The position numbers and the translations under genes are program-made. From contig JANOEP010000034.1 in the NCBI GenBank assembly GCA_031441465.1, positions 1 through 22,463 of the forward strand: DNA of 22,463 bases. Reading direction: 5' to 3'. Shown piece by piece: positions 6,973-8,262 of this stretch. The DNA is from a bacterium (GTDB lineage: Bacteria > Krumholzibacteriota > Krumholzibacteriia > LZORAL124-64-63). A model generated the notes under the pieces. That model searched no databases. It was not told the DNA's origin and was given only the letters and a program-made list of their open reading frames with translations. The first letter of the stretch is position 1; each line of letters starts with the position of its first letter.

Positions 6973-8262
6973 TCACAGCCAGCCGCGGTCGCGGCAGGCC
7001 GAAGCCACGCGGTTGATCGCCAGCACGTACGCCGCGTCGCGCAGGGACAGCTCCTGGCGGCGCGCGAGGTCGGAGACCGCGATGTAGGCGGCGGTCATCT
7101 TCAGGTCCAGCTTGCCCAGGACCTCGTCCATTTCCCAGTAGTAGTTCATGTTGCTCTGGACCTGCTCGAAGTAGCTGCAGGTCACGCCGCCGGCGTTGGC
7201 CAGGAAGTCCGGCACGACCAGCACGCCGCGGCCGCGCAGGACCTCGTCGGCCTCGGGCGAGGTGGGGCCGTTGGCGCCCTCCAGGACGAGGCGGACGCGC
7301 GGGTTCACGCGGCCGACGTTGTCGGCGGTGATCTGGTTCTCCAACGCGCAGGGCATCAGGATGTCGACGTCCTGCTCGAGCCAGGCCTCGCCCGGCAACG
7401 CGGCGTAACCGGCAGCTTCGGCGCGCGCGCGATCGATGCCGCCGTAGCGGTCGGCCATCCCGCGCAGTTCGGCCAGGTCGACGCCCCCGTCCCGGCGGTA
7501 GGTGACCGCTTCGCCGCGGCCCTCGTCCCAGCAGGAGACCGCCACGGTGCGGCCGCCGATGCGCCCGTACAGCTCGACGGCGTGCTGGGCCACGTTGCCG
7601 AAACCCTGCACGCTGGCCGTGGTGGCGTCGGGGCGCACGTCCAGCTCCTTGAGCGCCTCGCGCAGCACGTAGACCAGCCCGTAGCCCGTGGCTTGCAGCC
7701 GGCCGCGCGACCCGCCCATGCCCACCGGCTTGCCGGTGAACTGGCCGGGGTGGCGGCCGCCGCGCATCGTCTCGTACTCGTCGAGCATCCAGAGCATGTG
7801 CTGCGGGCCGGTCATCACGTCCGGGGCCGGCACGTCGGTCTCGGGCGAGAGTTCGCGCCCGAGCTGACGGACCCAGCCGCGGCAGAGCGCCTCCTGCTCG
7901 CGTTGGCCGAGGTGGTGCGGGTCGCAGACCACGCCCCCCTCGCTGCCGCCCAGCGGGATGTCGACCACGGCGCACTTCCAGGTCATCCACATGGCGATGG
8001 CGCGCACGGTGTCGATCGTCTCGTGGGGATGGAAGCGCACGCCGCCCTTGGCCGGCCCGCGCGCGTCGTTATGGACGATGCGGAAACCCTCGAAGACCTC
8101 GACCCGCCCGTCGTCCATGCGCACGGGGATGGTGAAGTGCCGCTCCCTGGCCGGCGTGCGCAGGTAGGCGCGGGTTCCCGCGTCCAGCCCGATCAGGTCG
8201 GCGATCTTGTCGAACTGGGACTGGGCCATCGCGAAGGCGTTGAAGGCTCGGTTCGCGGTCAT
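6973..8262 (-). CDS. Glu/Leu/Phe/Val dehydrogenase family protein (GDH homologue) with catalytic Lys replaced by Glu
   Basis: 429 aa, GAGGTG RBS. Motifs GPAKGGVRFHP, MTWK, DVPAPD, TGKP...GGSRGR..ATGYG, QGFGNVA, EGANGP, PDFLANAGGVTCSYFE. The GGxKGG motif reads GGSEGG. Confidence 0.92.
   Translation of the reverse strand: MTANRAFNAFAMAQSQFDKIADLIGLDAGTRAYLRTPARERHFTIPVRMDDGRVEVFEGFRIVHNDARGPAKGGVRFHPHETIDTVRAIAMWMTWKCAVVDIPLGGSEGGVVCDPHHLGQREQEALCRGWVRQLGRELSPETDVPAPDVMTGPQHMLWMLDEYETMRGGRHPGQFTGKPVGMGGSRGRLQATGYGLVYVLREALKELDVRPDATTASVQGFGNVAQHAVELYGRIGGRTVAVSCWDEGRGEAVTYRRDGGVDLAELRGMADRYGGIDRARAEAAGYAALPGEAWLEQDVDILMPCALENQITADNVGRVNPRVRLVLEGANGPTSPEADEVLRGRGVLVVPDFLANAGGVTCSYFEQVQSNMNYYWEMDEVLGKLDLKMTAAYIAVSDLARRQELSLRDAAYVLAINRVASACRDRGWL

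Follow-up and report, generated by a model that had tools for sequence, protein, structure and literature searches.

A glutamate dehydrogenase homologue with glutamate at the catalytic lysine position, encoded in a conserved PPDK_N gene cluster of Krumholzibacteriota

The window analysed here is positions 1 to 22,463 of contig JANOEP010000034.1 (NCBI GenBank assembly GCA_031441465.1), DNA from a bacterium of the Krumholzibacteriota. It carries a gene for a glutamate dehydrogenase (GDH) homologue, referred to as P0001, in which the catalytic lysine is replaced by glutamate, and the gene lies among others that encode dikinase-like proteins with the Pfam domain PPDK_N. A first-pass annotation, made from the letters alone, had called P0001 a probable pseudoenzyme. 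The gene and the codon in question are as follows:

6973..8262, minus strand: GDH-family protein P0001, 429 aa, with Glu108 replacing the catalytic lysine (Pfam, phmmer, AlphaFold2, Foldseek)
7939..7941 (read 7941..7939), minus strand: codon 108, GAG (Glu), at the catalytic-lysine position (translation and phmmer alignment)

A GDH homologue with Glu108 at the catalytic lysine site

The open reading frame (ORF) is full length, as first annotated, starting with ATG and preceded by GAGG 7-10 bases upstream. P0001 contains both Pfam domains of the Glu/Leu/Phe/Val dehydrogenase (ELFV) superfamily, ELFV_dehydrog_N (168.8 bits, cut-off 25.3) and ELFV_dehydrog (220.8 bits, cut-off 23.4), and its domains, fold and dinucleotide motif place it in the hexameric GDH class. 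The top solved relative found by phmmer is the GDH of Pyrococcus furiosus (1gtm_A; E 8.3e-111, 373.8 bits), and the AlphaFold2 model of P0001 (predicted local distance difference test, pLDDT, 94.6; predicted template modelling score, pTM, 0.91) has as its best Foldseek match the GDH of Thermococcus profundus (8zmu_B; template modelling (TM) score 0.93, root-mean-square deviation 1.8). The hexameric GDHs of Pyrococcus, Thermococcus and Thermotoga (1gtm, 1euz, 8zmu, 2tmg) share with P0001 the same two domains and the same length, at 42-45% identity in the Foldseek rows and TM scores of 0.90-0.93. No GDH equivalog model of NCBIfam scores above its cut-off for P0001 (GdhA_Arch, 426 bits, cut-off 750), and a lysine-bearing paralogue from the same genome, P0285, also falls below the GdhA_Arch cut-off (460.9 bits against 750).

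The active site motif of GDHs elsewhere reads GG[GSA]KGG, whereas P0001 reads P-L-G-G-S-E-G-G, and in phmmer alignments to solved structures Glu108 falls beneath the lysine of GGGKGG in three archaeal GDHs; the GAG codon and the GGSEGG motif first described thus hold by translation and by alignment to solved GDHs. This lysine, Lys125 in the numbering of Clostridium symbiosum, is one that GDH needs in order to deaminate or aminate its substrates, and is reportedly the subject of mutagenesis papers by McPherson in 1988 and by Lilley and Engel in 1992. The carboxylate-binding lysines and the catalytic aspartate of a competent GDH (K72, K96 and D148) are present in P0001, as are the motifs GFGNVA (220-225) and GGVTCS (358-363), all of which had been listed as retained; the glycine-rich nucleotide motif, K72, K96, D148 and S363 are common to P0001 and the hexameric GDHs. 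An alignment of 55 rows, with relatives down to 40% identity and including five rows of the lysine-less clade of the window as well as a distant lysine-less protein (P0158), holds 42 invariant columns, hence all intact in its lysine-less rows, and G220, G222, N223, G358, G359 and S363 are among the invariant residues. P0001 is thus a full-length GDH of the Pyrococcus/Thermococcus type with glutamate at the catalytic-lysine site.

The first-pass annotation had cautioned that Glu108 might reflect a recent mutation or a consensus error, a caveat that is refuted by related sequences. The 90%-identity cluster of P0001 has 20 members, 15 of which are listed, and GGSEGG occurs in 13/13 of the other full-length members listed, which are 95.1-96.0% identical and come from separate public records; a further listed member is a 57-aa fragment that does not cover the site. 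Within the genus of the window, an orthologue with 95-96% identity is found in five of the six other species, each with GAG, so that the Glu copy is present in 6/7 genomes; in the sixth other species (G002; 92% complete, 430 contigs) only the other paralogue was detected. Logan contigs of two possible source runs are identical to the window over 2021..9964, with word depths of ~31 and ~20. Because it is common to the cluster members and the genus orthologues, with a GAG codon in all six genus copies, Glu108 is neither an assembly error nor a private mutation.

Origin of the lysine loss and selection on the gene

Among the 120 best database matches to P0001, 117 carry lysine at the site, and the other three are P0002 with Glu, P0043 with His and P0105 with Gln. 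When P0043 served as the query, 80 new proteins were brought in, 79 with lysine and one, P0286, with serine. Two DNA patterns, which between them allowed any codon other than AAR (Lys) and AAY (Asn) at the site and required the context W-K...P-x-G-G-x-X-G-G, were scanned over 208 genomes of the phylum and matched ten of them, with zero matches for reversed-pattern controls; Asn codons lay outside this search. The residues found by the scan were:

Genus of the window, 6/7 genomes: Glu (GAG)
G019, one genome: Gln (CAG)
G017, one genome: His (CAC)
G121, in the genus of G017, one genome: Ser (AGC)
G102, in a different family, one genome: Thr (ACG)

The codon at this position in lysine-bearing relatives is AAG, and His and Ser stand at the site in two species of one genus (G017 and G121). 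The question raised at first annotation, whether the Lys-to-Glu change recurs in homologues, is thereby answered: Glu recurs within the genus, and the copies of sister genera have Gln, His and Ser instead.

A quick IQ-TREE tree of 39 genome-derived GDHs places the nine Glu, Gln, His and Ser proteins, from three genera, in one clade with a support of 98 in the SH-like approximate likelihood ratio test (SH-aLRT), and FastTree likewise gives this clade a support of 98. The Thr protein of G102 groups with a lysine-bearing protein of its own family (SH-aLRT 98). The tree of genome copies thus indicates two losses of the lysine in the phylum, one in the nine-protein clade and one in G102. The base of the nine-protein clade loses its resolution once a metagenomic lysine-bearing protein, P0085, is included, and one or two losses are therefore possible within that clade. 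The stem of the Glu clade is long in the IQ-TREE tree, at 0.35 changes per site against a median of 0.12 for end branches.

The gene has remained under strong constraint. The ratio of nonsynonymous to synonymous substitution rates (dN/dS), calculated by the pairwise Nei-Gojobori method for the six genus orthologues (15 pairs, mean dS 0.12), averages 0.129 for the lysine-less GDH, compared with 0.167 for the same-class lysine-bearing paralogue in the same genus, so that the lysine-less gene is kept at least as strictly as a working GDH. The neighbouring gene for a 580-aa PPDK_N protein has a dN/dS of 0.229 within the genus over its first 490 codons. K72, K96 and D148 are present in 10/10 lysine-less genome copies, and the drift of the lysine site while these residues and the Rossmann motif stay fixed is a signature of a pseudoenzyme. 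Five chemically unlike residues in otherwise tightly conserved proteins point to a position without a remaining role, and side chains as different as those of E, Q, H, S and T argue against a new catalytic residue.

Elsewhere in the lysine-less proteins the constraints are no longer the same. Of 206 columns with a conservation of at least 95% in 200 subfamily members, 8-10 deviate in these proteins, where the median is 1 and the 95th percentile 5, which makes them the strongest outliers of the subfamily; P0001 itself differs from the hexameric GDHs by Glu for Lys and by 8 further departures at these columns. Examples from the Glu clade are Q63V, S119G, G139S and I175F. A migrated lysine was sought at the 37 columns where the lysine-less proteins leave the 90% consensus, and zero lysines were gained there; the sole new basic residue at these columns is Arg186, in the E and H forms only, and 5/195 lysine-bearing proteins have lysine at that column.

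The PPDK_N neighbourhood and the other GDHs

The lysine-less GDH gene is embedded in a same-strand array, and the features around it are given below:

14218..15591, minus strand: AlaDh_PNT (LKR-like) gene (Pfam)
12872..14221, minus strand: saccharopine dehydrogenase gene (Pfam)
11325..12869, minus strand: aldehyde dehydrogenase gene (Pfam)
8294..11290, minus strand: response-regulator receiver and PPDK_N protein, 998 aa (Pfam Response_reg, PPDK_N); stop 31 nt upstream of the GDH start
5205..6947, minus strand: PPDK_N protein, 580 aa (Pfam PPDK_N, 115 bits); start 25 nt downstream of the GDH stop
2021..5212, minus strand: PPDK_N and nucleotidyltransferase protein, 1063 aa (Pfam PPDK_N, 201 bits, and NTP_transf_2); 8-nt overlap with the end of the 580-aa gene
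1019..2020, plus strand: metallophosphoesterase, convergent with the cluster (Pfam Metallophos)
1..930, minus strand: gdhA-type (E. coli-like) GDH with MGGGKGG, cut at the contig end (ORF translation, Pfam)

The array runs in the order LKR-like, saccharopine dehydrogenase, aldehyde dehydrogenase, receiver-PPDK_N, GDH, 580-aa PPDK_N and 1063-aa PPDK_N, and no gap or overlap between neighbours exceeds 35 nt. With three PPDK_N genes and a metallophosphoesterase beside it, the GDH gene stands in a GDH-linked PPDK_N cluster. The cluster also holds GDHs of two different classes, of which the second lacks the lysine in three genera; the gdhA copy with MGGGKGG that the first-pass annotation had reported in the window is the one at its left end. 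The first three genes, a saccharopine-type lysine catabolism set, adjoin the receiver-PPDK_N gene head-to-tail and are collinear in G017 and G019, and in G023, which has the Lys form, ~5.5 kb lie between the aldehyde dehydrogenase and receiver-PPDK_N genes. A scan for terminators gave 6 terminator-like sites against 4.8 expected, all intragenic and none between array genes, and a scan for promoter-like sites returned none.

G017 (His), G019 (Gln), G121 (Ser) and G023 (Lys) are collinear with the window over the whole locus. Homologues of the receiver-PPDK_N protein are encoded upstream of the GDH gene in related genomes, and homologues of the 580-aa PPDK_N protein flank it as well. A gdhA-type GDH occupies the corresponding end of the locus in G019, G023 and G121, and the start of one does so in G017. 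The 3.5-kb contig of G102 (Thr) holds the GDH gene, a PPDK_N gene and the start of a long PPDK_N gene. A PPDK_N homologue lies within 1.5 kb at 29/30 loci of the GDH subfamily in related genomes, the exception being of the other paralogue type, and all ten lysine-less genes found in the 208 phylum genomes adjoin PPDK_N genes. In a wider sample of this GDH class, a PPDK_N gene lies within 6 kb at only 10/80 loci. The suggestion that lysine loss might track with PPDK_N neighbours is borne out in that every lysine-less gene found in the phylum genomes (10/10) belongs to the PPDK_N-linked subfamily, and fails in that most members of this subfamily keep the lysine; since the cluster is common to lysine-bearing and lysine-less loci, the neighbourhood is a property of the subfamily and not a predictor of the loss.

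Several features of the PPDK_N genes vary between loci. In G017, G019 and G121 an extra opposite-strand gene for a PPDK_N and nucleotidyltransferase-like protein, 41-43% identical to the 1063-aa protein, lies between the long PPDK_N gene and the metallophosphoesterase (L043 16280..18379, L044 2568..4844 and L140 7916..10150, respectively); it is absent from the window and from G023. The C-terminal residues ~472-519 of the 580-aa PPDK_N protein match no Pfam family. Its motifs GFGRWGS and SQGSHFFHN are invariant in 54 homologues, similar motifs occur in both of the further PPDK_N proteins that the window encodes, and the invariant His of SQGSHFFHN could be a phospho-acceptor. A complex prediction for the GDH and the 580-aa PPDK_N protein (residues 10-580), both given as alignments, yielded values of 0.59, 0.00 and 0.18 against a mark of 0.32 and carries no weight either way. 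RNA-library contigs from one study, 92-95% identical and thus from relatives and not from the strain of the window, span parts of the cluster, and one of them crosses from the interior of the GDH gene to the end of the receiver-PPDK_N gene (7778..8776). In another RNA-library contig (run X18, ~93% identical) the 31-nt spacer that separates the receiver-PPDK_N and GDH genes is lengthened by two insertions, of 11 and 4 bases (8289..8293), which means that this spacer varies among relatives.

The genome of the window has four ELFV matches: the lysine-less gene, the cut gdhA-type gene, a second gdhA-type gene on contig C4 and the same-class paralogue P0285 on contig C72. The three other than the lysine-less gene all have GGGKGG. 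P0285 is 64% identical to the lysine-less GDH and lies outside the 125-row subfamily on the tree, and zero PPDK_N genes were found within 3 kb of this paralogue in the genus. The second gdhA-type gene (L001 1492..2970, minus strand, in G000) has an ORF of 492 aa whose first ~40 residues, a basic N-terminus followed by a hydrophobic stretch, resemble a signal peptide or else reflect a start called too far upstream; export would be unusual for a GDH. In G004 (contig C13, L041 2801..4074) the paralogue of the C72 type is matched by tblastn in two overlapping pieces (residues 3-79 and 70-427), which suggests a frameshift or an assembly fault.

Lysine-less GDHs also occur in a broader sample of the family. 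A survey took the 150 best representatives of 50%-identity clusters, of which 148 cover the site, and 12/148 are without lysine: P0158, P0167, P0177, P0181, P0213, P0223, P0224, P0243, P0246, P0253, P0282 and P0283, where the residues found are His, Val, Met, Arg, Cys, Phe, Ser, Met, Gln, Cys, Cys and Arg. Several of the twelve have also lost K72 or D148 (patterns such as MRHG, QAVS and IQCD). On a FastTree tree of 131 rows the lysine-less state has to change 7 times, and well-supported branches make at least 5 of these changes unavoidable. A scan of genome contigs with six deep-branching lysine-less representatives gave 80 loci, 47-55% identical to the query, and 82/83 GDH matches had lysine; a scan of metagenome contigs with P0167 gave one contig of 1648 bases, with no neighbour genes. 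A Chloroflexi metagenome-assembled genome (JACQEC010000065.1; L061 2693..5251) encodes a tandem GDH pair, GGGKGG followed by PFGGAAGG with Ala at the site, near which no PPDK_N genes were found. This pair is a Thermus-like arrangement with an independent loss of the lysine.

A non-catalytic role and its alternatives

Since the lysine needed for GDH chemistry is gone, P0001 is very probably not a normal GDH. On balance we lean towards the reading that it is no working enzyme but a GDH fold that binds ligand without catalysis and acts together with the PPDK_N cluster. The canonical oxidative deamination and reductive amination would have been lost and the protein kept by selection as a non-catalytic component, most likely still as a GDH-like oligomer that binds a dicarboxylate (glutamate or 2-oxoglutarate) together with NAD(P)(H). 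Its place within a cluster of three PPDK_N proteins, a metallophosphoesterase and a canonical gdhA-type GDH hints at a physical or regulatory link, in which P0001 may serve as a ligand-sensing partner, a scaffold or a surrogate target of the ATP-using PPDK_N proteins while the lysine-bearing GDHs of the genome would carry out catalysis. The initial interpretation is thus supported in part: the clade-wide loss of the lysine, the drift at its site, the low dN/dS and the kept binding residues favour a pseudoenzyme, and a loss of activity is inferred from them. A more specific proposal, which we regard as tentative and rather doubtful, is that the lysine-less GDH is the dedicated receptor or substrate protein of an undescribed ATP-driven signalling system. 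The receiver-gated and nucleotidyltransferase-bearing PPDK_N proteins would either have the GDH fold as their protein target or respond to its ligand state. The dead copy would do nothing but sense glutamate, 2-oxoglutarate and NAD(P)H, and would thereby set how active the canonical gdhA-type enzyme at the other end of the locus is.

Several observations weigh against a non-catalytic role tied to the cluster. Lysine is kept at 22/30 subfamily loci, 21/22 of which are also in a PPDK_N cluster, and in 196/200 distinct proteins from the two homologue searches; as most subfamily members keep the lysine, the cluster normally holds a competent enzyme, and a role for a dead one in it is conjectural. 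Residual or altered activity is compatible with the sequence, and the His of one lineage could in principle act as an acid/base. The essentiality of the lysine enters the argument as general background, and the RNA-library contigs give a weak hint of expression, and that in a relative.

The closest described parallel is the GdhA of Thermus thermophilus, a catalytically inactive regulatory subunit of the GdhA-GdhB hetero-hexamer according to two reports (PMC9570180; bioRxiv 10.1101/2025.10.31.685773). GdhA resembles P0001 in being a GDH paralogue with a kept fold, thought to be non-catalytic and accompanied by a catalytic GDH in the same genome. By sequence, however, P0001 matches the catalytic Thermus chain 3aoe_A (321.8 bits, E 4.9e-95) better than 3aoe_E (224.8 bits, E 1.4e-65), so it is not an orthologue of Thermus GdhA. 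The gene contexts differ as well, with PPDK_N genes beside P0001 and, presumably, a gdhA-gdhB pair in Thermus. A second parallel from T. thermophilus is ADLP, an alanine-dehydrogenase-like protein with its catalytic lysine replaced that still binds NAD(H) and regulates a CoA transferase by binding (bioRxiv 10.1101/2025.10.31.685773). P0001 is likewise an amino-acid dehydrogenase homologue with a replaced catalytic lysine, but its fold family is ELFV and that of ADLP is AlaDH, and the ADLP partner named there is the CoA transferase. Only the Thermus work was found in the literature on pseudo- or lysine-less GDHs, supplements not covered.

The Thermus precedent suggests that P0001 might instead be a regulatory subunit that forms a mixed hexamer with the same-class paralogue on C72 and tunes its activity, independently of the PPDK_N genes, which we consider unlikely. 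Besides being a documented type of system, such a pairing would suit the first genome sample, in which 8/8 genomes with a lysine-less copy also have a same-class Lys copy and 14/14 single-copy genomes have Lys, and it would suit the Chloroflexi tandem pair with its lack of PPDK_N genes. The pairing is broken by G102 (84% complete), where the Thr variant is the only same-class GDH and the other ELFV match is gdhA-type; moreover, in the genus of the window the paralogue is on another contig with no PPDK_N gene within 3 kb, whereas the lysine-less gene is in a PPDK_N cluster in 10/10 cases, and P0001 is nearer to the catalytic chain than to the regulatory one. Comparably improbable is an enzyme that still works, whether as a slow GDH or with altered chemistry, such as reduction of a 2-oxoacid without amination or the use of another substrate, for example 2-aminoadipate from the saccharopine-pathway genes. 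Everything in the pocket except the lysine is kept, including D148, K72, K96 and S363, purifying selection is strong, and here as in G017 and G019 the same-strand genes immediately upstream are those for the LKR-like protein, saccharopine dehydrogenase and aldehyde dehydrogenase. No single chemistry suits E, Q, H, S and T at one site, however, no lysine has been gained at the 37 deviating columns, where Arg186 is the only newly basic residue, and the glutamate-carboxylate-binding residues are unchanged, so that nothing points to a longer substrate; the sole basis for aminoadipate is the adjacency of the saccharopine-pathway genes. That the gene is decaying, or is an assembly error without function, deserves almost no credence. 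The change from AAG to GAG takes a single base and the window comes from a metagenome-assembled genome, yet the frame is intact in six species of the genus with a dN/dS of 0.13, the thirteen listed cluster members agree across separate records, the lysine-less state is common to three genera, and the contigs of two runs are identical at a depth of 20-31.

If it is indeed non-catalytic, the GDH homologue of the window represents a second lineage of pseudo-GDH, unrelated to the Thermus precedent. The lysine appears to have been lost once, in the ancestor of three genera, and followed by four residues at the site, whereas selection on the remainder of the protein was no weaker than on a working paralogue. 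Every lysine-less copy found in the phylum genomes (10/10) belongs to a conserved cluster of dikinase-like ATP-grasp proteins that is as yet uncharacterised. A naturally non-catalytic GDH fold would offer an experimental handle on this cluster, since it separates a role in ligand binding or partner binding from a role as an enzyme. The finding is also a warning for annotation, in that proteins labelled 'Glu/Leu/Phe/Val dehydrogenase' may not always be enzymes, the lysine being absent from twelve of the 148 best representatives that cover the site. Should P0001 prove to be a sensor, the repeated origin of the lysine-less state, with two losses in the phylum and those twelve representatives, would make pseudo-GDHs a widespread regulatory device.

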